This document shows, piece after piece, positions 1-14,157 of a stretch of DNA of 14,743 bases (position 1 is its first letter; each line of letters starts with the position of its first letter). The position numbers and the translations under genes are program-made. The DNA comes from a virus (lineage: Duplodnaviria > Heunggongvirae > Uroviricota > Caudoviricetes). The notes beneath the pieces are model-generated. The model was not told the DNA's origin and searched no databases. It saw only the letters and a program-made list of their open reading frames with translations. Location of the stretch: positions 1 through 14,743 of IMG/VR virus record IMGVR_UViG_2529293239_000005. The stretch is one strand, 5' to 3'.

Positions 1-77
1 CGTTGTTTTGGTGTGCTTCGCTGTCATAGGCTTTATCTCACAGCAGTAAATTAAAATTTTTGCGTTTTAACCCTTCA

Positions 78-302
78 CCTGTTCACCTTTTGATATTTTC
101 TCTTTTAATTCATAATGTTAAGGGGTGAACAGTTTCACAAAAACTATTCACCAACTGTTCACCACTGTTCACCCTTGAAGCTCAATAAACAATCAAAAAG
201 GTGAACAGTGAATAGTTTGGTGAACAGTTCATAAACAACTGTTCACCCTATAATATACTGATATAAAAGATATTTATGACAGGGTGAACAGTGGTGAACA
301 GT
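78..302. repeat. Iteron array, candidate replication origin: 10-bp unit GGTGAACAGT / ACTGTTCACC
   Basis: Perfect copies forward at 124-133, 200-209, 219-228, 283-292, 293-302 and reverse at 154-163, 164-173, 238-247; 9/10 copies at 78-87, 143-152, 208-216. AT-rich spacer 249-277 (possible unwinding element). Starts 13 bp past the primase stop codon (315-317). Confidence 0.6.
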
Positions 303-314
303 TATTCCATAAGT

Positions 315-2132
315 TTAATTTTTGCTATCGTCATTAGTGACCGATACACATGATGGCATCCAGTCTTCTGATTCCTCCGTCAGTGTCACGTTTGAACGCA
401 AACCGTGCTTCGTTTTCCGTTTCATATACTCCCTGCCATATTCCGCCATTGCCCCCGGCATATCTTTACCGAAGCGCGTCAGTGTTACAGGTTTACCAAA
501 CCCATGTGCCCTCATATAAGCCAGATAGGCATGATAGAGATACCTGCGTGGGCTGAATGGCACAATTTCAGCATTACCCACTAACAGGCCATCACACATT
601 ACCGACGCCATGAGATAGCCGCAGAAGTCCACCAGCGAATCCCCCTCTCGCTTTATCGCCAGTGCTTCTTCAGATTTCTGCTGCTCATATAACAGGCGTC
701 TGGCTTCGTCCTGGTCAGCAAACCGTGTAAGCAGATGGCGAATCACTACCGCCAGCTCACCTTCTATTTTTTCCGCCAGCATTGGATCGCGTTCGTTCTC
801 CGGTACAACTTCCGAAAAATTGAATATCACCCGACGACGTGAGATCCCCCCGCTGCGGTCACTGAATGACATGGCGTTATTGTTAACCGCCAGCACTACT
901 GCCGGAATACGCGTTGAGTAGGGGGCTTTGTGTTTTGGGTCAATTGCCACCTTGTCACCGCCTGTAATGGCCTTAATTCCTGCCCCATCACCAGCGTAGC
1001 GGGTCATATCCGGCATGATAATCAGCGAAAAGCCAACCACTAACGCGCGTTCCCTTGCATCTTCCAGCGCCTTCATGCTTGCCGATACTGTGTTGGCCTT
1101 ACCCGCCAGCATGGTGCAAATCTCCGCCATCACGCTTTTACCACTTCCCCCTGGACCTGTTACCTCAATGAATAACTGCCAGTCGTACCGGTTCGCCAGC
1201 ACCATGAATAATGCAGCCAGTACGCGATCCGCCTTGCGGTCATTCTCAGCCACCGAACGGCGTAACCACTTCCAGAAATTCGGCGCATGTGTTGCCAGCG
1301 TTTCCCCCTCTGCTGGTGGGCTGAAAGGTAATTCACTGGCAATTAACAACCAGTCGTTTTTGTTATGCTCCCGAAAATTACCTGTTCTGGTATCAAATAC
1401 CCCGTTACTGAATCCAATCAGGTTACGGGCTGTATTCCCCATTACAGGCAAACTTAACTTCATGGTATCGACCGCCGATTTAATGGCGTTCTGCGAATAG
1501 CTGATCTCCGCATCAATGAAAATCTGTGCCATAGCTCGCTGTAATTCTTTATCCTGTACTGGCTCCCATACAACGCCGTTGTAATGGTGAACAGTGTCAG
1601 AGTCAGCATGAATCGCCAGTTCACCGCCATAATGTGCCAGGAGAACTTCGCCGCGTTGACTTGCTCCCATCTGGTTAAGCGCCAGTGATGAAGCGTTATC
1701 GTCTTTTACCCGCTCTTTTTTCTTTACAGGCAGTTCAACTACCTTTTTCTTTTCCGCCTGCTCTGCCCGTTCACGTTCCAGATATTCACGCCAGTTCTCC
1801 CGTTTCTGGCTGTGCATTCCTTCAGGGTAATAATCAGCATCCCTGACACCTGCCGCTGCCAGTTTCTGCCCGATGGTATTAACAAGCCCCGGACGCAATA
1901 ACCCCGCCTGATAGAGACGCACGCGATAGCGTCCGTCCGGTACGATTTGCAGGTTGTCCAGTTCGGCAAGTTGTTGCTCTCCAAGCCAGACAGGAGGCAC
2001 GTTATCGCCAGCCAGTCGCCCGTCCTGTTCCTGCCACTGATTCGCATGTGCCCACGCATCACTACCCGCAAAAATGATGACTTCCGTCATTTTGTCACGC
2101 GGCTGGTGTTTTAAATTTGGCGCTTTTTTCAT
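315..2132 (-). CDS. Replication protein, P4 alpha-like primase / SF3-type helicase (pri-rep)
   Basis: Long ORF with Walker A P-loop GPGGSGKS and downstream hydrophobic Walker B-like stretch, as in phage/plasmid primase C-terminal NTPase domains. Start placed at ATG 2132 (GGAGAGAG SD upstream; ATGA overlap with upstream ORF stop) rather than the GTG at 2147 used by the ORF track. Iterons lie immediately 3'. Confidence 0.75.
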   Translation of the reverse strand: MKKAPNLKHQPRDKMTEVIIFAGSDAWAHANQWQEQDGRLAGDNVPPVWLGEQQLAELDNLQIVPDGRYRVRLYQAGLLRPGLVNTIGQKLAAAGVRDADYYPEGMHSQKRENWREYLERERAEQAEKKKVVELPVKKKERVKDDNASSLALNQMGASQRGEVLLAHYGGELAIHADSDTVHHYNGVVWEPVQDKELQRAMAQIFIDAEISYSQNAIKSAVDTMKLSLPVMGNTARNLIGFSNGVFDTRTGNFREHNKNDWLLIASELPFSPPAEGETLATHAPNFWKWLRRSVAENDRKADRVLAALFMVLANRYDWQLFIEVTGPGGSGKSVMAEICTMLAGKANTVSASMKALEDARERALVVGFSLIIMPDMTRYAGDGAGIKAITGGDKVAIDPKHKAPYSTRIPAVVLAVNNNAMSFSDRSGGISRRRVIFNFSEVVPENERDPMLAEKIEGELAVVIRHLLTRFADQDEARRLLYEQQKSEEALAIKREGDSLVDFCGYLMASVMCDGLLVGNAEIVPFSPRRYLYHAYLAYMRAHGFGKPVTLTRFGKDMPGAMAEYGREYMKRKTKHGLRSNVTLTEESEDWMPSCVSVTNDDSKN

Positions 2133-2428
2133 TTCTGCTCTCTCCACGCGGCAATCATGTTTTTCAGTTCCTGTAGTTTTTTATCAACATCCATACATGA
2201 CACATGGTTATTTCTGGAAAGCGGGATTTCCCGCCTGAATCTGCTAATAAAGATCTCCACGTTCAGCGAACTATGAAATGAATAGCCATCACGAATAAAA
2301 TACACACGGTCAAACATCAGTTCTTTTACCGTTACTCTGTTACCGTTCTTATCCAGATAAACAGCGCCGGGGATAGTTTTGGGGTGTGCATAACCGCTGG
2401 CAGTCAAGCCAGATAAATATGTTCTCAT
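2129..2428 (-). CDS. Hypothetical protein, 99 aa, overlapping the primase start
   Basis: ATG at 2428 with GGGGA SD upstream; stop overlaps the primase ATG as ATGA. Same strand and operon position as the small genes preceding alpha in P4-like elements. No recognisable motif. Confidence 0.5.
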   Translation of the reverse strand: MRTYLSGLTASGYAHPKTIPGAVYLDKNGNRVTVKELMFDRVYFIRDGYSFHSSLNVEIFISRFRREIPLSRNNHVSCMDVDKKLQELKNMIAAWREQK

Positions 2429-2434
2429 GATTAT

Positions 2435-2755
2435 TTATCCCCGATTTGAATCAGTATTCGCTTTCTTTATGGCATTTAATGCATCTGTGGCATTTTCAAT
2501 GGTGCACCGTAACGAAATATCAAACTGCCCAAGCATTGCCAGTAACAAACCGATATTACCCATATCAATGCGCATAGCCTTTTCGTCATAGTCCTCATTT
2601 TCTGACGCATGCCACATCAGGCTACCAATTGACGCAATACCCATTGATATATTGTCAGTAGCCCCATCCGCAGCGGAATAAACCTTTTTAGCAATATCAT
2701 GCTCACAGTTAAAATGCGGATTAATCAGGTACTGGTAATTTGACATATCAGGCAT
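2435..2755 (-). CDS. Hypothetical protein, 106 aa
   Basis: ATG at 2755, 8-bp overlap with the upstream small gene, 6-bp gap to the next gene; tightly packed operon. No recognisable motif. Confidence 0.5.
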   Translation of the reverse strand: MPDMSNYQYLINPHFNCEHDIAKKVYSAADGATDNISMGIASIGSLMWHASENEDYDEKAMRIDMGNIGLLLAMLGQFDISLRCTIENATDALNAIKKANTDSNRG

Positions 2756-2951
2756 GGCACACCCCCTGACGAATACGGGCGGCGAATACCATCACGCAGC
2801 CAGCCGGGGATTGCTGGCGTGCTTCCTGTTCGCTGGTGGCCACGATGTGAATCACGCGCGGTTGTGCGGTGCTCAGGGCGATAAAACGCCAGATGTATTT
2901 ATTCAGGTCGTGCGAGTCCCGCCCTTGCGGGTGTGTGGTATGATTTCTCAT
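2748..2951 (-). CDS. Small protein, 67 aa; possibly an Icd-like host cell-division inhibitor (tentative)
   Basis: ATG at 2951 with GAGG SD about 6 nt upstream. The ORF track extends to a GTG at 3146 but that extension covers the operator/promoter region. Sequence (MRNHTTHPQGRDSHDLNKYIW...ATSEQEARQQ...) resembles, from memory only, small Icd-like proteins annotated in P4-like prophages; unverified. Confidence 0.45.
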   Translation of the reverse strand: MRNHTTHPQGRDSHDLNKYIWRFIALSTAQPRVIHIVATSEQEARQQSPAGCVMVFAARIRQGVCHA

Positions 2952-3048
2952 AGCTACCTCGATACGCTTTCTATCGTTGGTGGTTAGAAGCCCGGTTAGT
3001 GTTAGCGCACTGCCGGGTTTCGTCGTTTCTGCACCTTGCATCAACAAG

Positions 3049-3100
3049 GTGTTAAACACCAATTTAAGCCTAGGTGTTAAACACGTCAAGTGTTGAACAC
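3049..3100. promoter_or_regulatory. Three 11-bp perfect palindromes GTGTT-N-AACAC (candidate operators) in a divergent promoter region
   Basis: GTGTTAAACAC at 3049-3059 and 3074-3084, GTGTTGAACAC at 3090-3100, plus inverted repeat CACCTTG...CAAGGTG at 3033-3052. Candidate leftward promoter: -35 TTGACG (3090..3085), -10 TAAATT (3066..3061). Candidate rightward promoter: -35 TTGAAC (3093-3098) inside operator 3. Confidence 0.55.
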
Positions 3101-3149
3101 TTATTTTTTTCCTGCATACTGCATTTGTTTTTTGTAAGGGGTACACAAC

Positions 3150-3329
3150 ATGGCGACAAAAGCAGTAAACGCAAAATCACAAACAGTTGCGGCAAGGGTT
3201 CCGCATGAAGTTATGAACAATGTTGAGGCGGTAAAAATGCCTGGTGAAAGTACAGGGCAGTTTGTAACAGCAGCATTAAAGCGAGAAGTTGAATACCGCC
3301 AGCGTCGCAAGGCCAAAGAGCAGGAGTAA
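3150..3329 (+). CDS. Small DNA-binding protein, 59 aa, ribbon-helix-helix-like; candidate repressor
   Basis: ATG 3150 with AAGGGG SD 9 nt upstream. Segment TVAARVPHEVMNNVEAVK then GESTGQFVTAALKREVEY fits a beta-strand/helix/helix (Arc/CopG-like) pattern. Sits directly beside the palindromic operators, divergent from the replication operon. Below the ORF-track length cutoff. Confidence 0.45.
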   Translation: MATKAVNAKSQTVAARVPHEVMNNVEAVKMPGESTGQFVTAALKREVEYRQRRKAKEQE

Positions 3330-3386
3330 CCATCACCAGCGCCGTGGTGCGGTGAACTGTGGCGCACAGGGTTACAGGTATCTACG

Positions 3387-3566
3387 ATGACTGACAAATC
3401 ATTAAAGAAATTATCCTCATCCAAGAAAAAACAACGCAAAAATGCGGTAAACGAACATGAACCGGAGAGATTCGCACCATGTGCGTTTATCCTTGAGAAG
3501 TACCTTAAAGAGTATTCTAGGAAAATACGCTCATTGCAGGCATGGCAGCGAATCGAGCCAGACTGA
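3387..3566 (+). CDS. Hypothetical small basic protein, 59 aa (Lys-rich N-terminus)
   Basis: ATG 3387, weak SD; co-directional with the RHH-like gene and followed by an intrinsic terminator. A 188-aa minus-strand ORF (3101-3667) overlaps it but crosses the operators and the terminator. Confidence 0.35.
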   Translation: MTDKSLKKLSSSKKKQRKNAVNEHEPERFAPCAFILEKYLKEYSRKIRSLQAWQRIEPD

Positions 3567-3630
3567 TAGCATTGCCCACTAGCCGACAACCTGGTATTCT
3601 GGATATGCTCAAGTTTAGTGTTATGCCACT

Positions 3631-3658
3631 GGCGACCGCCCCCGGTCGCCTTTGTTTT
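3631..3658 (+). terminator. Rho-independent terminator of the rightward two-gene module
   Basis: GGCGACCG-cccc-CGGTCGCC perfect 8-bp stem followed by TTTGTTTT. Confidence 0.6.
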
Positions 3659-3676
3659 ATGTGTCATAGCTCCCCC

Positions 3677-3901
3677 CTAGGCTGCCTTACCTGAATTAAC
3701 GCGGTCACGGCTTTGCACCCAGTCCATAACTTCGGAAAGCAACCAGCCTACAGAACGCCCCCCAAGATTACGGCGAGACGGAAAGCCCCCTTTCTTCTCC
3801 AGTTCGTAGCGTGTAGTACGGCTGACGCCTGTTAACTTACGACATTCATCCTCACGAATTACGCGATCTGTTAGTGATTGAAATTGTGTATTTTGATTCA
3901 T
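3677..3901 (-). CDS. alpA: AlpA/Vis-family phage transcriptional regulator (MerR-like HTH)
   Basis: 74-aa ORF with AlpA-family pattern (...FP...GGRSVGW...E...W...). ATG 3901..3899; C-terminus GKAA verified codon by codon. Confidence 0.8.
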   Translation of the reverse strand: MNQNTQFQSLTDRVIREDECRKLTGVSRTTRYELEKKGGFPSRRNLGGRSVGWLLSEVMDWVQSRDRVNSGKAA

Positions 3902-3932
3902 AAAAACACCCTCGAACGTAACCGAACGAGGG
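3902..3932 (-). terminator. Terminator-like hairpin plus U-tract immediately 5' of the alpA start codon, sequestering its SD
   Basis: Minus-strand reading: CCCTCG-(12-nt loop)-CGAGGG-TGTTTTT-ATG. The 3' arm CGAGGG contains the only SD-like element for alpA. Candidate promoter just upstream: -35 TTGCAC (3962..3957), 16-nt spacer, -10 TAAGAT (3939..3934). Confidence 0.4.
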
Positions 3933-4004
3933 CATCTTATTTACCATAGCAGTTGGTGCAATATTGGAAAAATAAACTTTATTCTAATTTATCGTTCTCC
4001 ATGA

Positions 4005-4859
4005 TTAATTTTCATTAGATAACATTTTTCTTATTTTTTCTAAAGAATCGCTGCGCATTATTTTTTCTAAGAAGGGTTTTACAGTCTGAGCAATAGCAAA
4101 GGTGTCCTTTTCACCATCAGGATACAAAGATACGGCAAGCACCCCTAATGAAATTTTTCTATCTGTAGACAACTCCCAAGATAATAAGTCAATTAATGGG
4201 ATTATCTTATAATCAATAATTTTACGTCGTATGCTCTCCCAACTTCCTGCAATTGGTTTGTCTGGCTCAACAATTGAAAGTTCACTACGCCATTTTGGTA
4301 ATAGTTTTGTAAACGCTTCAATCAACTCATCATCTCTGTTATGTAGTAAGTCAACAGAAACAAGCATATTATCTAATGTATCAGAAAGGAGATTCACTGG
4401 TTCACGCATCACAGCCCAAAACATCCCATTATCTTCTGATATTAAACTTCCAACCATCTCATTATCTATGATGATTGGTTTATCCTTCCAATATCCTCTT
4501 TCCGCAGTCAGTTTATTAATCATTGATATATCAAACCTTGTTACAGGTTTAATTCCATCATCATAACTTAGCTCAATTAACTTCGGCTGCACTTTATGGT
4601 CATATTCTTTTTGTTTATCACAAAACCAATCGTCTTCTTTAAGCTCTCCAAATGGATCCCCGTAATTATTATGCAACGGGTATTCAGCACCAAACATAAA
4701 ACCATATTCAGGCATCTCAGAATGTTTCATTGTTAAATCATCTTGTCGCCAATATAATTGGCGAAATAGATCTTTATCCGACAAGTTTTCTAGGCAATCA
4801 TATTTGCCTAAATCAAATGACTTTGGTAAATCTTTTTTACTATTTACTTTTTTCGTCAT
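4005..4859 (-). CDS. Hypothetical protein, 284 aa; AT-rich cargo gene between int and alpA
   Basis: ATG at 4859..4857 overlaps the integrase TGA (4858..4856) as ATGA; GAGAGGG SD 5-6 nt upstream. Visibly AT-rich versus neighbours (estimated by eye, not computed). No recognisable catalytic motif. Confidence 0.7.
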   Translation of the reverse strand: MTKKVNSKKDLPKSFDLGKYDCLENLSDKDLFRQLYWRQDDLTMKHSEMPEYGFMFGAEYPLHNNYGDPFGELKEDDWFCDKQKEYDHKVQPKLIELSYDDGIKPVTRFDISMINKLTAERGYWKDKPIIIDNEMVGSLISEDNGMFWAVMREPVNLLSDTLDNMLVSVDLLHNRDDELIEAFTKLLPKWRSELSIVEPDKPIAGSWESIRRKIIDYKIIPLIDLLSWELSTDRKISLGVLAVSLYPDGEKDTFAIAQTVKPFLEKIMRSDSLEKIRKMLSNEN

Positions 4860-6076
4860 TGTATCCCTCTCAATATCACAATATTTTCTTTATATCCTGC
4901 AATCATATCAAGACGCTCAACCCATAGATTCAGTGCGTCCCGTTTCGCCTGCAAATAGCGTGAATGGTTATAGGTTTTTTGCTGACCTGGCATCTGATGC
5001 GCTGTGATGTGCTCCACGATATGCGGATCGACACCTAAATCATTCAGCATAGTTGTAAACGTGTGTCGGAAATCATGCAGCGTCCAGTGTTCCTGCTTAA
5101 GCCGCTTATGCGCATTTCGTCCATATTGCGCCACCGTGGTATCTTTTTTCAGTTCGCCGAGTAATAACCCAGTGTGTGCGTTTTGCTCCACCAGCTTCTG
5201 AATGAACGGCAAAATGCCATCAGGAATAGGTCGGAATATTGTTACCTTCGTTTTGCTGTGCTCTTTTGGCACTGTCCACAACATTTCTTTCAGATCCCAT
5301 TCTTTGATCTCTGAAAGTCTGATCTCTGCCGTTCTGCACCCGAACACAATTAACAAGCGCATTAACGCACTGTAATAGGGAGCGAACACATCACCATCAA
5401 TAGCGCGTAGAATTTCTTTTAGTTCGCTGTTGCTGTGCACTCTCTCGCGGATTTCTGCTCTCTTACCCACATCAGTAACGATCAAATCGTCCAGGGCGTT
5501 GCTAAACGCGTAGCGCCGCCTGCGGCAAAACTTTAGCGCCTGTTTGCATGTCTGCATGACATGGCCCGCTGCTACTGGTGCTTTTTTTCGTACGCGGTCA
5601 AAACATGTGATCCACTGCCTTGTATCACACTTATCAAGGGGAATTGCCCCGATATGGCAAATGATGTGCTTATCCATACGCTGCACCAGCTTTATGTAAT
5701 CTTTGCGGTTATCCTTCGCGTATTCCTCCAGCCAGTAGTTAATCGCTTCCTTCACCGTAACGGGTTTTAGTGCTTCCTGTACTGTGGCGCACAACTCATA
5801 CCGAGGGTTTTTACCCTCAGCCAGCCATGCCCGGCACTGTGTTCGCTTTTCCCTTGCAGATTTCAGCGACAATTCCGGGTAAGCCCCCAGCTTTAACCGC
5901 TCTGCGGCAACCTCACGGCCTCCCGTTCGGTACCGGAAATACCAGGTTAATTTGCCTCCCTTTGAGTGTTTAATCTCCAGCCCGCCCCCGTCGGAGTAAA
6001 AACGCTCTTTTTCTGCCTGGACAGCCACCAATTTTTTTAACGTTGAATCGCTCAGTTTGTTTAGTGCTTTTCCCAC
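4856..6076 (-). CDS. int: P4-type tyrosine integrase / site-specific recombinase
   Basis: 406-aa ORF; N-terminus typical of P4-family integrases (LSDSTLKKL...GKLTWYFRYR); C-terminal catalytic signature HDFRHTF and tyrosine in KTYNHSRY. GTG start at 6076 with AGAGGA SD 7 nt upstream. Confidence 0.9.
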   Translation of the reverse strand: MGKALNKLSDSTLKKLVAVQAEKERFYSDGGGLEIKHSKGGKLTWYFRYRTGGREVAAERLKLGAYPELSLKSAREKRTQCRAWLAEGKNPRYELCATVQEALKPVTVKEAINYWLEEYAKDNRKDYIKLVQRMDKHIICHIGAIPLDKCDTRQWITCFDRVRKKAPVAAGHVMQTCKQALKFCRRRRYAFSNALDDLIVTDVGKRAEIRERVHSNSELKEILRAIDGDVFAPYYSALMRLLIVFGCRTAEIRLSEIKEWDLKEMLWTVPKEHSKTKVTIFRPIPDGILPFIQKLVEQNAHTGLLLGELKKDTTVAQYGRNAHKRLKQEHWTLHDFRHTFTTMLNDLGVDPHIVEHITAHQMPGQQKTYNHSRYLQAKRDALNLWVERLDMIAGYKENIVILRGIQ

Positions 6077-6112
6077 TATCAGATCCTCTTTTCAGTCCTC
6101 CAGCCTCAAAAA

Positions 6113-6136
6113 ACTGACCACACAACTGACCACACA
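6113..6136. repeat. Perfect tandem direct repeat ACTGACCACACA x2, 37-60 bp upstream of the int start
   Basis: Copies at 6113-6124 and 6125-6136, followed by a CA-rich low-complexity tract (about 6140-6250). Candidate regulator or integrase arm-type binding sites. Confidence 0.5.
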
Positions 6137-6457
6137 TTTCGCTGAAGCTCGGCAAACAACAACGAACAGCAACAAACAAGAAAGCTAATTAAATCATTGT
6201 ATATCAAACACATACACAAACAATCACGAACATCCCCGAACTACAAAAAACACTAAATGAGAAAATACGGGTATTTCTCAGCCTTCACAAAGAAGGGCAC
6301 CCCGAGTCATTTAAAACAAAATCAAAAGATTGCGATTAACGTCCCGTTAATCCCTGTTCTGGATCATGCCAGCGGAAAGCCAAAGACTCAACCCTAAAAA
6401 ATCCTCTGTGTCCCAGTTTGTGTCTCACGTTGTGGCCCACAGATAAATGGCAGGCAC

Positions 6458-7894: not shown

Positions 7895-9413
7895 CTATCC
7901 ATCCTGCACTTTCACATTAACGTTCACGTTTAGCGGCTGGTTTAGCCACGCTGGCGGCGTCATCAGTGGATTACCTGCCATATCAACTTTAAGCTGTGGC
8001 GCTGTAATCGTCGGCGTAGGAGGTACATAAGTTGGATTGGAGTAAGAGCTTACCCACCCTGTTTTATCTGCTGGTTTGGCAAAGTCTGGATTAGTCGGAA
8101 GGTCTGGACTATGGAGGAAATCCCACAGTTTACCCAGCGGGCTATCTTTTTTCAGATTGCCCCCGGCGGTGGTGTCCTGTCCATACATGGCGTCGTTAGC
8201 GTCATGACCTTATCCCAGGCATAATCCCCACCTACCGAACCGACCGCAATGCTCCAGCCAACAGGACCGCCAGAGAGAGCCGCCGCGCCGCCTACCTTGC
8301 CAACTTTCGGACCCCGACCCGGTTTGTTTGGCTTGTCTTTACCTTCCCCACCAGATCCGCCAGTAGTAGCGGCTTCAATGCCACCAATAGCGGCGATCCC
8401 TTTCATGACCCCCAGTAATTTGGTTAGTGGGTTAAGCATGGTCAACAACCATTTAAAGGCTACGCCCAACTTCCAGATAGACCCGGCGAACATAGCCACC
8501 CCGGCGGCGTATGCTGCCATTTCGCCCCAGGCTTTAAGCTGCTCACCAGTGATCCCCATCTTGCTGGCGTAATACTCAATAATGCGGAAGGTCAGGATCA
8601 CAGTGTCATGCAACTCTGTAAACGCATCTGTGGCACCCTCAACGATTTTCCCGGCAATATGCCCGAACATCTCAAAGGCCCCACCAGAGCCGTTAACAGC
8701 GGCGCTGATAGCGTCGAAAGCGCTGGTTAATTCGTTGCCGAAGCCAGAAGCAAAGAAGATGTTCATCGCGTTCTGCATACTGGTTTGCAGGCGCTGCCAG
8801 CTTGCCCGGTTGGACTTCATAGCCTTATCCAGAGCGCCGCCGTTACGAGCTGCGGCTTTCATCTGTTTAGCCACTTCCGGGAGGATGTCCTTAGAGAACA
8901 GCTTCCCTTGTTGCATCAGGTCAAACAGATCCTTTTCTGTAAGGTTGGTTGTCCCTTTCATCTGGTTGAGAGCCTTAACGAACAGACCCACAGCCCCCGG
9001 GAGAGCTTCGGACAACTGGCCTTTGAGTTCTTCACTCATTACCGTTCCTTTAGACATCATCTGATTCAAACTTTTCAAAGCGCGGCTGGCTTCATCGGCT
9101 GAAGCACCTGTAACAAGGCCCCATTCACTGGCACCCTCAAAGATGGATCGCATCTGGTCTTTAGGGAGCTTGTCACCAACAGCGGCGGCAAACTGAGTGT
9201 AATCACGGGAAGTCTTGAGGAGATCCAGCCCCAAACGGTTGGATTGATCACGGAGATAATCAAACTCTTTAGCGGCCTTATCTGTGGAACCGGTGATCGC
9301 TGTCAGACCAGAAAGCGCGGATTCAAAATCCTGTCCGGTGGTCATGATCTTGCCGCTCAGCGCCACAGTTGCGGCAATGGTGATCGCCCCGCCTGCACCC
9401 TCGATCATGGAGG
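7895..9413 (-). pseudogene. Phage tail tape-measure protein gene remnant: 5'-truncated by IS629 and frameshifted
   Basis: ORF 8152-9408 has the Ala/Gly/Leu/Ser-rich, low-complexity composition recalled for tape-measure N-terminal regions (e.g. the stretch ...ELKGQLSEALPGAVGLFVKALNQM...). Its reading frame stays open up to the IS boundary at 9414. ORF 7895-8188 continues in a different frame with a 37-bp overlap, implying a 1-bp indel near 8204-8215. Confidence 0.7.
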
Positions 9414-9455
9414 TGAACCGCCCCGGGTTTCCTGGAGAGTGTTTTATCTGTGAAC

Positions 9456-10346
9456 TCAGGCTGCCAGATCATCGTTTCCGATGGAAGCATAATAAGCTTT
9501 TTCTGCTTCTGCCGGAGGGATGTGGCCCAGCCTTTCCAGCAATCGTCGATTATTATACCAGTCCACCCACGTGAGTGTGGCCAGTTCCACTTCTGCACGG
9601 TTTTTCCAGCTCTTACGGTGTATTACCTCCGCTTTGTAAAGACCATTGATGCTCTCCGCCATCGCGTTGTCATACGAGTCGCCTGTACTTCCTGTTGATG
9701 CCAGTAATCCGGCTTCCTTAAGCCGCTGTGTGTAGGCCAGCGATACATACTGAGAACCTTTATCACTGTGATGGACCGTGCCGGACGGTCGACGGGCCCA
9801 TAACGCCTGCTCCAGTGCATCCAGCACGAATGTCGTCTCCATGGACGATGAGACCCGCCACCCCACAATGTATCCGGCAAACACATCAATGATGAACGCC
9901 ACATAGACGAAGCCCTGCCATGTGCTGACGTAAGTAAAATCAGCTACCCACAGCTGGTCAGGTCGTTCTGCCACGAACTGACGGTTTACGCGGTCGCCTG
10001 CGGCAACGGCTTTCCGGCTGATGGTCGTACGGACCTTTTTACCCCGGAGAACACCGGCAAGTCCCATAACCGCCATGAGACGTGCCACAGTGCATCTGGC
10101 CACTCTGATACCTTCCCGTAACAACTGACGCCAGACTTTACGCACACCGTATACCTGATGATTCCCATCGTATACGCGCAGTATCTCTTTCTTCAGCCAG
10201 TCATCGCGCTGCGCACGGGCACTGCGTTTATCCGGATGATGTCGCTGTTGCTGACAGTGGTAATACGTTGACGGGGCAATATGCAGTTCGCTGCATAGCG
10301 GTCCGACCCCGTACTGCTCACGCAGCTTATCCAGCAGTGGCATCAT
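9456..10346 (-). CDS. IS3-family transposase OrfB (DDE catalytic domain), normally made as an OrfAB fusion by -1 frameshifting
   Basis: 296-aa ORF recognised from memory as IS629-type OrfB (integrase-core DDE transposase); overlaps orfA in the -1 frame at the A6 run. Confidence 0.85.
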
Positions 10347-10669
10347 TTTTTCCAGAGGCGGTCGAACTCCGCCTTCGCAAAATAAGCGGAAGCCTGGCGA
10401 AGGATATCGTTACTGCGGCGCAGTTCACGATTTTCACGCTCCAGCTCTTTCAGACGCTGACGTTCAGCGGTGGTGAGCCCGCCATCACCGCCCCCGGTAT
10501 CCCGCTCATGCTGGCGAACCCAGACACGCAGAGTCTCCGGCGTACAGCCAATCTTTGGAGCAATGGAACAAATTGTCGCCCATTGTGAGTCATATTCGCC
10601 CTGACTTTCCAGAACCATACGGACTGCCCGTTGACGGACTTCGGGGGAAAAACGAGTATTTTTAGTCAT
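10343..10669 (-). CDS. IS3-family transposase OrfA (HTH, leucine-zipper region)
   Basis: 108-aa [22 protein letters not shown]..., recognised as IS629/IS1203-type OrfA; ends in the A6 frameshift window. Confidence 0.85.
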
Positions 10670-10811
10670 CCTGTTTACCTCTTTCTCAGGAAGTTTAGTC
10701 TCCAGGATTCCCGGGGCGGTTCATTGCCTGTATGATCAATCGACTTTGTAGAGTTTCGGACGAAGGTCCGCAGAATATTCGCAGTATTAAATAAGTGTTC
10801 ATTAATGCGGC

Positions 10812-10853
10812 AAAAACTAATACACCGCATCAATGTAACATCTCTGCGGTGTA
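10812..10853 (-). terminator. Probable intrinsic terminator of apbC
   Basis: Hairpin TACACCGCA...TGCGGTGTA (10822-10853) followed on the minus strand by TTAGTTTTTG; lies between the apbC stop and the IS629 end. Confidence 0.45.
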
Positions 10854-10882
10854 TGAAGAATAACCAGAATGGTTAATAGGCG

Positions 10883-11992
10883 TTAGACCGCGCGGAAGGA
10901 AATCTCGCCTGGAATGACTTCACCCTGCCAGTAGAGCTGAGCTGCAACGCGGTCAGCCAGCTGGCGGTAGATAGCGGTAAATTCGCTCTCCGGACGGCTG
11001 ATAACCGTTGGCGTGCCTTTATCGAGATCCTCACGTAAGGAGATGTGTAACGGCATCTGCCCCAGCAGCTGTGTGTGGTATTTTTCAGCCAGTTTCTCTG
11101 CACCACCGGTACCGAAAATCGGTTCATGGTGACCACAGTTACTGCAAATATGCACACTCATGTTCTCGACAATACCAAGCACCGGAACCTCGACTTTCTC
11201 GAACATCACAATGCCTTTTTTCGCATCGATCAACGCGATGTCCTGCGGGGTGGTGACCACGACTGCACCAGTTACTGGAATGTTTTGCGCCAGCGTCAAT
11301 TGAATGTCACCGGTGCCTGGCGGCATATCAAGCACCAGATAGTCGAGATCCGGCCACAAGGTTTCCTGCAACATCTGCATTAACGCCTTGCTCGCCATCG
11401 GTCCACGCCACACCATCGCATTGTCGTCAGTGACCAGATAACCAATTGAATTGGTTGCCAGGCAATGAGACATAATCGGTGCCATATGGGTACCGTCCGG
11501 CGAAGTTGGACGCTGATTTTCTGCGCCCAGCATGGTGGGAATTGATGGGCCGTAGATATCGGCGTCCAGAATGCCGACTTTCGCCCCTTCCGCCGCCAGT
11601 GCCAGCGCCAGGTTTACCGCCGTGGAGGATTTACCCACGCCGCCTTTACCGGAACTGACCGCAATGATGTTCTTCACACCATTAATACCCGGCTGATTCT
11701 TCACGCGTTTTAAGGTGGCGATATTGTGCGACAGTTTCCAGTCGATAGCTTTCGCCCCGGTGATACGCAGCAGTTCGGCGCTACATTGCTCTTTTAACTC
11801 TTCAAACGCGCTATGCCAGACGAATGGCATAACCAGTTCCACATGCAACGTGTCGTCCATCCAGGCGACATGGTGCAACGCTTTCAGCGTGGTGAGGTTA
11901 TGCTTCAGGGTTGGGTGCTGAAAATTGGCCAGTGTCCCGGCGACCATTGCGCGCAAGGCTTCTGGTGATTTGGCCTGGGATTGTTCGTTCAT
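10883..11992 (-). CDS. apbC: Fe-S cluster carrier ATPase ApbC/Mrp
   Basis: 369-aa protein MNEQSQAKSPEALRAM... with P-loop GKGGVGKS and CxxC; recognised as E. coli Mrp. ATG at 11992..11990; the ORF track's 12022 start is an upstream in-frame extension. Confidence 0.95.
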   Translation of the reverse strand: MNEQSQAKSPEALRAMVAGTLANFQHPTLKHNLTTLKALHHVAWMDDTLHVELVMPFVWHSAFEELKEQCSAELLRITGAKAIDWKLSHNIATLKRVKNQPGINGVKNIIAVSSGKGGVGKSSTAVNLALALAAEGAKVGILDADIYGPSIPTMLGAENQRPTSPDGTHMAPIMSHCLATNSIGYLVTDDNAMVWRGPMASKALMQMLQETLWPDLDYLVLDMPPGTGDIQLTLAQNIPVTGAVVVTTPQDIALIDAKKGIVMFEKVEVPVLGIVENMSVHICSNCGHHEPIFGTGGAEKLAEKYHTQLLGQMPLHISLREDLDKGTPTVISRPESEFTAIYRQLADRVAAQLYWQGEVIPGEISFRAV

Positions 11993-12123
11993 CCCTACTC
12001 CTTTTTTGTATAGATAAACCATCAGCTGATAGTTTACCTGAAGAATATAGAGAAGTACTTACTTAACATTTTCCCATTTGGTACTATCTAACCCCTTTTC
12101 ACTATTAAGAAGTAATGCCTACT

Positions 12124-14157
12124 ATGACTCAAGTCGCGAAGAAAATTCTGGTGACGTGCGCACTGCCGTACGCTAACGGCTCAATCCACCTCGGCCATAT
12201 GCTGGAGCACATCCAGGCTGATGTCTGGGTCCGTTACCAGCGAATGCGCGGCCACGAGGTCAACTTCATCTGCGCCGACGATGCCCACGGTACACCGATC
12301 ATGCTGAAAGCTCAGCAGCTTGGTATCACCCCGGAGCAGATGATTGGCGAAATGAGTCAGGAGCATCAGACTGATTTCGCAGGCTTTAACATCAGCTATG
12401 ACAACTATCACTCGACACACAGCGAAGAGAACCGCCAGTTGTCAGAACTTATCTACTCTCGCCTGAAAGAAAACGGTTTTATTAAAAACCGCACCATCTC
12501 TCAGCTGTACGATCCGGAAAAAGGCATGTTCCTGCCGGACCGTTTTGTGAAAGGCACCTGCCCGAAATGTAAATCCCCGGATCAATACGGCGATAACTGC
12601 GAAGTCTGCGGCGCGACCTACAGCCCGACTGAACTGATCGAGCCGAAATCGGTGGTTTCTGGCGCTACCCCGGTAATGCGTGATTCTGAACACTTCTTCT
12701 TTGATCTGCCCTCTTTCAGCGAAATGTTGCAGGCATGGACCCGCAGCGGTGCGTTGCAGGAGCAGGTGGCAAACAAAATGCAGGAGTGGTTTGAATCTGG
12801 CCTGCAACAGTGGGATATCTCCCGCGACGCACCTTACTTCGGTTTTGAAATTCCGAACGCGCCGGGCAAATATTTCTACGTCTGGCTGGACGCACCGATT
12901 GGCTACATGGGTTCTTTCAAGAATCTGTGCGACAAGCGCGGCGACAGCGTAAGCTTCGATGAATACTGGAAGAAAGACTCCACCGCCGAGCTGTACCACT
13001 TCATCGGTAAAGATATCGTTTACTTCCACAGCCTGTTCTGGCCTGCCATGCTGGAAGGCAGCAACTTCCGCAAGCCGACCAACCTGTTTGTTCATGGCTA
13101 TGTGACGGTGAACGGCGCGAAGATGTCCAAGTCTCGCGGCACCTTTATTAAAGCCAGCACCTGGCTGAATCATTTTGACGCAGACAGCCTGCGTTACTAC
13201 TACACTGCGAAACTCTCTTCGCGCATCGATGATATCGATCTCAACCTGGAAGATTTCGTTCAGCGTGTGAATGCCGATATCGTTAACAAAGTGGTTAACC
13301 TGGCCTCCCGTAATGCGGGCTTTATCAACAAGCGTTTTGACGGCGTGCTGGCAAGCGAACTGGCTGACCCGCAGTTGTACAAAACCTTCACTGATGCCGC
13401 TGAAGTGATTGGTGAAGCGTGGGAAAGCCGTGAATTTGGTAAAGCCGTGCGCGAAATCATGGCGCTGGCTGATCTGGCTAACCGCTATGTCGATGAACAG
13501 GCTCCGTGGGTGGTGGCGAAACAGGAAAGCCGCGATGCCGACCTGCAGGCAATTTGCTCAATGGGCATCAACCTGTTCCGCGTGCTGATGACTTACCTGA
13601 AGCCGGTACTGCCGAAACTGACCGAGCGTGCAGAAGCATTCCTCAATACGGAACTGACCTGGGATGGTATCCAGCAACCGCTGCTGGGCCACAAAGTGAA
13701 TCCGTTCAAGGCGCTGTATAACCGCATCGATATGAGGCAGGTTGAAGCACTGGTGGAAGCCTCTAAAGAAGAAGTAAAAGCCGCTGCCGCGCCGGTAACT
13801 GGCCCGCTGGCAGATGATCCGATTCAGGAAACCATCACCTTTGACGACTTCGCTAAAGTTGACCTGCGCGTGGCGCTGATTGAAAACGCAGAGTTTGTTG
13901 AAGGTTCTGACAAACTGCTGCGCCTGACGCTGGATCTCGGCGGTGAAAAACGCAATGTCTTCTCCGGTATTCGTTCTGCTTACCCGGATCCGCAGGCACT
14001 GATTGGTCGTCACACCATTATGGTGGCTAACCTAGCACCACGTAAAATGCGCTTCGGTATCTCTGAAGGCATGGTGATGGCTGCCGGTCCTGGCGGGAAA
14101 GATATTTTCCTGCTAAGCCCGGATGCCGGTGCTAAACCGGGTCATCAGGTGAAATAA
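12124..14157 (+). CDS. metG: Methionyl-tRNA synthetase
   Basis: 677-aa protein [26 protein letters not shown]... with HIGH-type motif (HLGH), KMSKS, zinc knuckle CPKC...C..CG and C-terminal tRNA-binding domain. Start taken as the second ATG (12124), matching the E. coli MetG N-terminus. Confidence 0.97.

Follow-up and report, generated by a model that had tools for sequence, protein, structure and literature searches.

The window examined here is the whole of a 14,743-nucleotide stretch of DNA (IMG/VR record IMGVR_UViG_2529293239_000005), which forms part of an island integrated into the Escherichia coli chromosome between thiM and rcnR. The subject of this analysis is a gap of 198 bp in it, lying between an Icd-like gene, the first of a leftward operon that ends with a primase-helicase gene, and a divergent gene encoding a 59-aa protein of the YlcI/YnfO family. 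The latter gene and a second small gene, 57 nt apart, are the sole genes opposite in direction to the minus-strand genes of the island. The gap contains three perfect 11-bp palindromes, here called O1, O2 and O3 (Table 1), spaced 25 and 16 bp from start to start, and the sequence at the sites reads GGTGTTAAACACC (3048-3060), GGTGTTAAACAC (3073-3084) and AGTGTTGAACACT (3089-3101). A sequence-only reading had described three palindromes at this spacing, and its positions proved exact. The pattern GTGTTNAACAC was matched exactly three times, at 3049, 3074 and 3090, and nowhere else in the 14.7-kb window with up to one mismatch; when two mismatches were allowed, the number of extra matches in the window (8, with 6.9 expected) was at the level of chance. 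Three 5-N-5 palindromes with the same arms within 100 bp were found in none of 300 first-order Markov simulations of the window, and the largest simulated cluster, of two palindromes, was seen in 3 of the 300 runs. The three palindromes are not a product of chance.

The sites overlap promoter elements in both directions, which bears out another part of the sequence-only reading: O2 and O1 lie on the leftward promoter, and O3 lies on the -35 of the rightward promoter. The -10 of the rightward promoter, CATACT, is homologous to the TATACT -10 kept in relatives. These relatives comprise about 40 loci, namely 31 taken from one genome per species, more obtained by exact-protein look-up and the island of E. 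coli CFT073, and they represent more than 10 genera, including Escherichia, Edwardsiella, Salmonella, Klebsiella, Kosakonia, Pectobacterium, Serratia, Xenorhabdus and Proteus. A common layout is kept among them, with sites at about -102 and about -77 from the ATG, TATACT at about -36 and a further site right after TATACT. In most loci an equivalent of O1, with a sequence specific to the class of the locus, precedes the ATG by about 97-113 bp; it is missing in a few decayed ones. The site at about -77 (O2) directly abuts GTCAA, the bottom-strand -35 TTGACG, and its position is fixed in 24 of the 31 loci; likewise, in 24 of the 31, TTGACG is followed after 16-18 bp by a -10 of the TAnnnT type, with CACGAT and AATAGT as the two exceptions. 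Because GTCAA is thus a TTGACG -35 with its -10 16-18 bp further on, one site fills the spacer of the promoter and the other covers its start point.

On the rightward side, the -10 (TATACT or CATACT) is located at about -36 in most loci and the -35 is weak in most relatives, where the -10 is generally followed by G and then by the class-specific site, in an autoregulatory position. A site at about -61, the position of O3, was found only in the class whose protein residues 11-15 are QT[VLI]AA (L001, L003, L046 and L050; L numbers designate the loci compared), and the older site after the -10 is partly kept in L002, L003, L046 and L050. This distribution suggests that in the class of the window a new site has arisen over the -35 and the older position at 3121-3131 has decayed. 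Across classes the spacing of O1 and O2 ranges from 22 to 36 bp, and the positions of the sites relative to the promoter hexamers are fixed; together, these features point to promoter occlusion and not to a strictly phased complex. An extra palindrome with a 5-nt centre, which may be a weak fourth site, is present about -125 to -110 from the ATG in L003 from Kosakonia and L046 from Klebsiella (GTGTTAAGGCAACAC and GTGTTTAGACAACAC, respectively). In the window, O1 is also abutted by an inverted repeat, CCTTG-N6-CAAGG (3034-3050), and many loci have similar repeats of other sequence at this position (for example, CCTTGAATGATTCAAGG in L013). Such a repeat would fold into a hairpin where the leftward mRNA begins, or could be an additional binding site.

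Residues 9-50 of the 59-aa protein matched the NCBIfam model NF041551 (YlcI/YnfO) with a score of 59.7 bits, the cut-off being 30. The same name is given by the Prokaryotic Genome Annotation Pipeline (PGAP) in E. coli strain FCI56 (L032) and in CFT073, and a PHROG of unassigned function was also matched. In an AlphaFold2 model made as a single chain from 33 homologues (predicted local distance difference test score, 81), residues 11-17 are extended and residues 19-28 and 35-58 form helices. Across the 33 homologues, G32, E33 and S34 never vary and T35 is kept in at least 90%, corresponding to the turn that starts helix 2 in ribbon-helix-helix (RHH) proteins. The model is structurally similar to solved RHH members, and on this basis we accept the RHH (MetJ/Arc) fold for the protein. 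Membership of a curated RHH sequence family was not found: neither the protein nor the 33 aligned homologues gave a significant Pfam RHH family, with weak hints only (CB_ParB_C, E = 0.15; PSK_trans_fac, E = 0.03). Sequence and profile searches of the PDB returned nothing meaningful (a chance segment of DNA polymerase beta and designed protein cages), and a PADLOC scan of the small proteins gave no match. Alignment by hhalign with Arc and CopG was in register and statistically not significant; it placed Arc Q9, N11 and R13, the base-contacting residues, opposite positions 12, 14 and 16 of the 59-aa protein. A literature search on YlcI/YnfO, on AlpA antitermination in such islands and on RHH proteins in satellites found no functional study.

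We compared the sites with the proteins encoded beside them. The site sequence differs between loci, and all copies in one locus change together, following residues 11-15 of the protein, so that about 13 protein/site classes are distinguished among the about 40 loci. The protein residues and operators are paired as follows: QT[VLI]AA with GTGTTnAACAC, KKLEA with GTGTCAGCCAC, KRFDV with GTGTCGGACAC, KKIDV with GTGTCAGACAC, QSLKS and QALKA (QS/ALKS/A) with GTGTGGCCCAC, QALRA with GTGGTCTACAC, QSVTA with GTGTCTTACAC, QK[LV]Q[AT] (including QKLQA) with GTGGAcTCCAC, QKMSA with CTGGCACCCAG and QKIQA with CTGGATtCCAG. Proteins with a changed N-terminal arm (MTRD.. or MSDN..) have CTGG..CCAG at the outer positions in place of GTG..CAC. 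When mutual information was calculated for protein columns 1-36, column 14 was the highest (6.4 bits), concentrated on operator positions 4-8, and columns 2-5 and 8, in the N-terminal arm, tracked operator position 1, the outermost base. These results indicate, at the level of sequence comparison, that residues of the strand set the DNA specificity, as in RHH proteins. If residue 14 does have this role, the substitution K14R in the CFT073 protein would shift its preference from GTGTGGCCCAC towards GTGTAGACCAC.

Comparison of the window with L033 reveals a natural recombinant in which only the operators, promoters and codons 1-31 were exchanged. Identity is 85-97% over 2759-3038, where the alignment is continuous to about 3052, falls to only 30-68% over about 3053-3243, that is, the operators, promoters and codons 1-31, and is 78-97% over 3230-3349 (97% in 3270-3309) and 95-100% in the primase gene; alpA is 82-85% identical. 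In addition, loci of the same class have differing genes on the left (Icd-like subtypes, a non-Icd 89-aa protein, Phage_ASH or KilA-N) and differing or absent genes downstream. For six further proteins the operators were written down before look-up; each was then located where expected, five of them as exact 11-mers and one as single-mismatch copies. The probability of an exact 11-mer occurring by chance within 150 bp is about 1e-4.

From these comparisons, the palindromes are very likely the operators of the 59-aa RHH protein, which would shut the replication operon and regulate its own gene. That they serve a dimeric repressor from the adjacent gene had been proposed in the sequence-only reading, and the fold model, the covariation in about 13 classes, the recombinant and the six predictions all argue for it. 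The predicted fold, the covariation of site and protein and the placement of the sites on the promoters emerge from comparison; from these we infer binding with one dimer on each 11-bp site, repression of both promoters and a role in quiescence or in limiting replication. The two-stranded ribbon would read the central five bases, with residue 14 providing most of the specificity and R16 invariant, and the N-terminal arm would read the outer bases of the operator. With a dimer on O2, inside the spacer, and another on O1, over the start point, RNA polymerase would be blocked at the leftward promoter and the Icd-like-to-primase replication operon would stay off, and occupation of O3, over the -35 of the repressor's own promoter, would result in negative autoregulation. 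By analogy, a module that consists of many orthogonal protein/operator alleles resembles the immunity regions of phages.

Several points weigh against this mechanism. The sequence-only reading had also taken the switch as likely to decide satellite induction. AlpA is necessary and sufficient to induce the closely related E. coli island EcCICFT073 (PMC6092414), and for this reason the candidate repressor cannot be the whole switch; as overexpression of AlpA alone induces that island (PMC6092414), the repressed step can be bypassed. The variation of the O1-O2 spacing between 22 and 36 bp leaves cooperativity in doubt. Furthermore, neighbouring DNA is inherited together, and linkage alone gives some covariation. 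Linkage is unlikely to be the whole explanation, however, because all copies change in concert, the boundaries of the swap are tight and the predictions were confirmed; judged by the swap, the mix-and-match neighbours, the six of six predictions and the mutual information, the covariation appears to exceed what linkage would give.

A second layer of control is suggested by a conserved antisense small RNA encoded in the left half of the gap. In its first hairpin, loop and stem carry sequence complementary to the start codon and the ribosome-binding site of the Icd-like gene. The consensus fold of 20 loci has 25 pairs, 16 of them with compensatory changes, many being G-U, and its energy is -28.6 kcal/mol on the plus strand versus -11.9 kcal/mol on the minus strand. 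A sub-threshold match to SymR was found in Rfam (32.8 bits, E = 0.0024), and the Rfam C4 and isrK families had no match at E ≤ 1 in 1-6300. The leftward operon is thus probably under control at two levels, by RNA as well as by protein. The sequence-only reading had stated that the switch differs from the RNA-based immunity of P4; this stands as far as matches of the P4 CI/C4 type are concerned, and needs to be amended in that a conserved antisense RNA lies beside the operators.

A wider and tentative proposal is that Gram-negative phage-inducible islands have their master repressor in the YlcI/YnfO RHH protein with its operators, an immunity-like system of at least about twelve orthogonal alleles determined for the most part by a single residue of the strand together with the N-terminal arm. 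AlpA-driven transcription from alpA would read antisense through the repressor cassette, silence the repressor and continue into the replication operon, inducing the island, and a further lock would be provided by the cis-antisense RNA that targets the Icd-like gene. Leftward transcription of alpA could pass 3631-3650, since the terminator there has its T-run on the plus strand only. A one-directional terminator beside alpA is also present in CFT073 (L045, 4714-5243).

The same molecular mechanism may also serve another role, a CopG- or omega-like feedback that limits the dosage of the replication genes after induction and thereby the copy number, with quiescence resulting from the absence of AlpA and from the antisense RNA. 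We consider this role possible but somewhat unlikely, as the many orthogonal alleles look more like immunity regions than copy-number controllers, and the operators cover the sole recognisable promoter of the replication operon.

That a different protein binds the palindromes (AlpA, the Icd-like protein or a host factor), the RHH gene being a linked passenger, is very unlikely. AlpA is a DNA-binding regulator encoded about 500 bp away, and the Icd-like protein matches phrog_6196 and phrog_1743, both labelled 'transcriptional repressor'. P4 cI was formerly annotated as protein-coding, and the P4 record retains this annotation (L044, 8168-8584); it is probably the source of the label, and a demonstrated function of the Icd-like protein is probably not. 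Moreover, the same operators occur beside unrelated left-hand genes (the non-Icd 89-aa, Phage_ASH and KilA-N genes), near-identical Icd-like genes are accompanied by different operators in the window, L033 and CFT073, and the swap encloses only the operators and RHH codons 1-31, with alpA remaining 82-85% identical. AlpA and the Icd-like protein were rejected as binders on the basis of the swap boundaries and the mixed neighbouring genes.

It is extremely unlikely that the RHH protein and the product of the downstream 59-aa gene form a type II toxin-antitoxin pair, with the RHH protein as antitoxin and the palindromes serving only to autoregulate the pair. The downstream slot is variable, encoding unrelated proteins of 57 to 248 aa (replaced or absent in L033-L051), and is empty in L034, L042/L043, L048, L049 and L050. 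The distance of 57 nt between the two genes also speaks against such a pair, neither protein matches a toxin or defence family, and two of the three sites are on the leftward promoter and not on the protein's own. Without a conserved co-transcribed toxin gene and without a match to a toxin or defence family, the toxin-antitoxin reading was rejected.

That the palindromes are origin iterons bound by the primase-helicase is barely conceivable: the repeats are short, occur in both orientations and lie close to a replication operon, and GGTGTT..AACACC loosely resembles the P4 iteron GGTGAACA, but the P4-type iterons lie elsewhere (nine perfect copies of TGTTCACC on the downstream side of the primase-helicase gene, which is also their place in P4 crr), the palindromes of the window and L033 are different with a primase segment 95-100% identical, and the same palindromes accompany a DUF927 replication protein (L037) or no nearby primase (L040), so this reading was rejected as the repeats neither follow the initiator protein nor mark the origin.

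The positions of the features are collected in Table 1. The segment 2740-3680 (941 bp) is 99.9% identical to E. coli strain FCI56 (L032). From right to left, the minus strand encodes the integrase, a DUF6387 protein and AlpA, followed by the gap and the Icd-like-to-primase operon. Judged from its sequence, the island is a satellite island of the EcCICFT073 type: int, alpA and the primase gene share one orientation and the origin lies downstream of the primase gene, and nine perfect P4-like type 1 iterons, TGTTCACC, are found downstream of the alpha-type gene. This octamer is annotated as 'ori type 1 repeat' in the P4 record, in both ori and crr; a literature search for it gave primer sequences only, and the P4 record was used in its place. 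In the full island in L032, none of the P4-like satellite markers sid, delta and psu is annotated. To the left of the window, past the primase gene, L032 carries at 8835-12855 a ClpP-protease/major-capsid fusion gene, a truncated tail gene, a tail assembly gene and a DUF1441 gene, which may mean that this copy is a capsid-encoding island in partial decay.

Table 1. Positions of genes, promoters and candidate regulatory sites in the window (aa, amino acids; RBS, ribosome-binding site)
Feature	Position	Strand	Description
Probable replication origin	80-300		Perfect copies of TGTTCACC (nine, both orientations) next to the primase-helicase gene, on its downstream side
Remainder of leftward operon	315-2755	-	106-aa gene, DUF4222 gene and 610-aa P4-family primase-helicase (ends at 315)
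Icd-like gene, 67 aa	2748-2951	-	First in leftward operon; NF033153, 71 bits; PGAP in L032 agrees
Antisense small RNA	2936-3033	+	Left half of gap; conserved in all loci
Extended -10 of antisense RNA	2936-2944	+	TGgTATGAT
Hairpin of antisense RNA	2952-2985	+
Terminator hairpin and U-tract of antisense RNA	2988-3033	+
Candidate operator O1	3049-3059		GTGTTAAACAC; just downstream of leftward -10; covers expected leftward start (about 3054)
Leftward promoter, Icd-like-to-primase operon	3061-3089	-	TTGACG (3089-3084), 17-bp spacer, TAAATT (3066-3061)
Candidate operator O2	3074-3084		GTGTTAAACAC; occupies leftward promoter spacer; abuts leftward -35
Candidate operator O3	3090-3100		GTGTTGAACAC; holds rightward -35 candidate; just upstream of leftward -35
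Rightward promoter, predicted RHH gene	3093-3120	+	TTGAAC (3093-3098), 16 bp, CATACT (3115-3120); read from sequence
Putative old promoter-proximal operator, decayed	3121-3131		Reads GCATTTGTTTT; in relatives, site directly after -10
YlcI/YnfO-family protein, 59 aa, predicted RHH repressor	3150-3329	+	RBS AAGGGG (3136-3141)
Second small gene, 59 aa	3387-3566	+	phrog_21027 (no function assigned); co-directional with 3150-3329; homologue in CFT073
Intrinsic terminator, rightward transcript	3631-3650	+	T-run on plus strand only
alpA, 74 aa	3677-3901	-	PF05930, E = 4.8e-16; convergent with repressor cassette
Integrase	6076-4856	-

The closest arrangement to that of the candidate operators is the immI region of P22, with Mnt and Arc and the divergent promoters Pant and Pmnt. 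In both, operators of small RHH repressors overlap back-to-back promoters, one of which leads to the repressor gene and the other to an early or antirepressor-type operon, and the N-terminal arm and the strand determine the specificity. The two systems differ in that no significant sequence relationship was found by Pfam scans and hhalign, in that three or four separate 11-bp sites are present here versus a single operator of 17 or 21 bp in P22, and in that the present module is multi-allelic, belongs to a satellite island and would control an operon of Icd-like and replication genes. As RHH regulators acting on plasmid replication promoters, omega of the inc18 plasmid pSM19035 and CopG of pMV158 are analogues. 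The heptads bound by omega are contiguous, whereas the 11-bp units here are 5-25 bp apart and hold fixed positions with respect to the promoter hexamers. As for CopG, its gene shares a transcript with repB and is not divergent from it.

The P1 immI region (C4 RNA-icd-ant) and P4 CI RNA are similar to the leftward operon in having an Icd-like first gene preceded by a structured RNA that targets its translation start, and P4 shares also the TGTTCACC iterons and the P4-family helicase. In contrast to P1 and P4, the RNA is here on the opposite strand (cis-antisense and SymR-like). The P4 record contains no RHH protein or operator layer, and P1 immI is not known to have one. With EcCICFT073, the prototype of Gram-negative phage-inducible islands, the window shares its gene order: int, alpA, an antiparallel small gene together with a YlcI/YnfO gene, and then the Icd-like, DUF4222 and primase genes. 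The Icd-like protein and the second small protein of EcCICFT073 are close homologues of those in the window, and it has an operator pair of its own, GTGTGGCCCAC twice; it differs in its QALKA repressor/operator allele and in its late genes. The int-alpA-primase island of CFT073 (L045) is very probably EcCICFT073, judged by the genes it contains and by its location directly ahead of the icd-integrated prophage. In the phage-inducible islands of Gram-positive bacteria (Staphylococcus aureus pathogenicity islands, SaPIs), the gene of the master repressor, Stl or Rpr, is divergent from the excision/replication operon (PMC6092414), and the position and presumed role of a small divergent regulator match those found here. 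By this analogy, the 59-aa protein may be the counterpart of Stl/Rpr in role, although Stl/Rpr is a helix-turn-helix protein removed by helper-phage proteins and the Gram-negative relatives, unlike SaPIs, are induced through AlpA.

Later surveys (PMC10111431, PMC13612085) mention AlpA and immunity RNAs and no protein repressor, and where YlcI/YnfO is listed in such surveys it is as an accessory 'prophage-associated protein' only. Whether a repressor exists in Gram-negative phage-inducible islands has not been settled by published work. As a mechanism, an RHH repressor/operator module is ordinary, and its satellite context is not described in the literature searched. The present analysis provides a named candidate repressor for the questions of how the islands are kept silent and whether those residing in one genome are insulated from each other, as well as a probable function, judged from comparison, for the uncharacterised YlcI/YnfO family. 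The about 13 natural pairs of small repressor and 11-bp operator could also serve as orthogonal genetic parts.

A second small gene that follows the first cassette in E. coli RM10466 (L037, 2185-2364) has upstream palindromes of its own, TGTGTAATGTGTATATACACATAAACACA, and its product, which is unrelated in sequence, looks like another RHH protein (..FQFRLDPDLREKMEKA..). Four E. coli alleles of the module were tested for distribution and were found in 487, 134, 68 and 60 of 5,426 complete genomes, together about 750. The place counts per genome are at most suggestive of co-resident islands avoiding a shared class, as is a single case in Xenorhabdus mauleonii that would fit insulation between such islands. 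In X. mauleonii DSM 17908, the two islands present belong to two classes (L016 and L026), KKLEA with GTGTCAGCCAC and QKIQA with CTGGATTCCAG.
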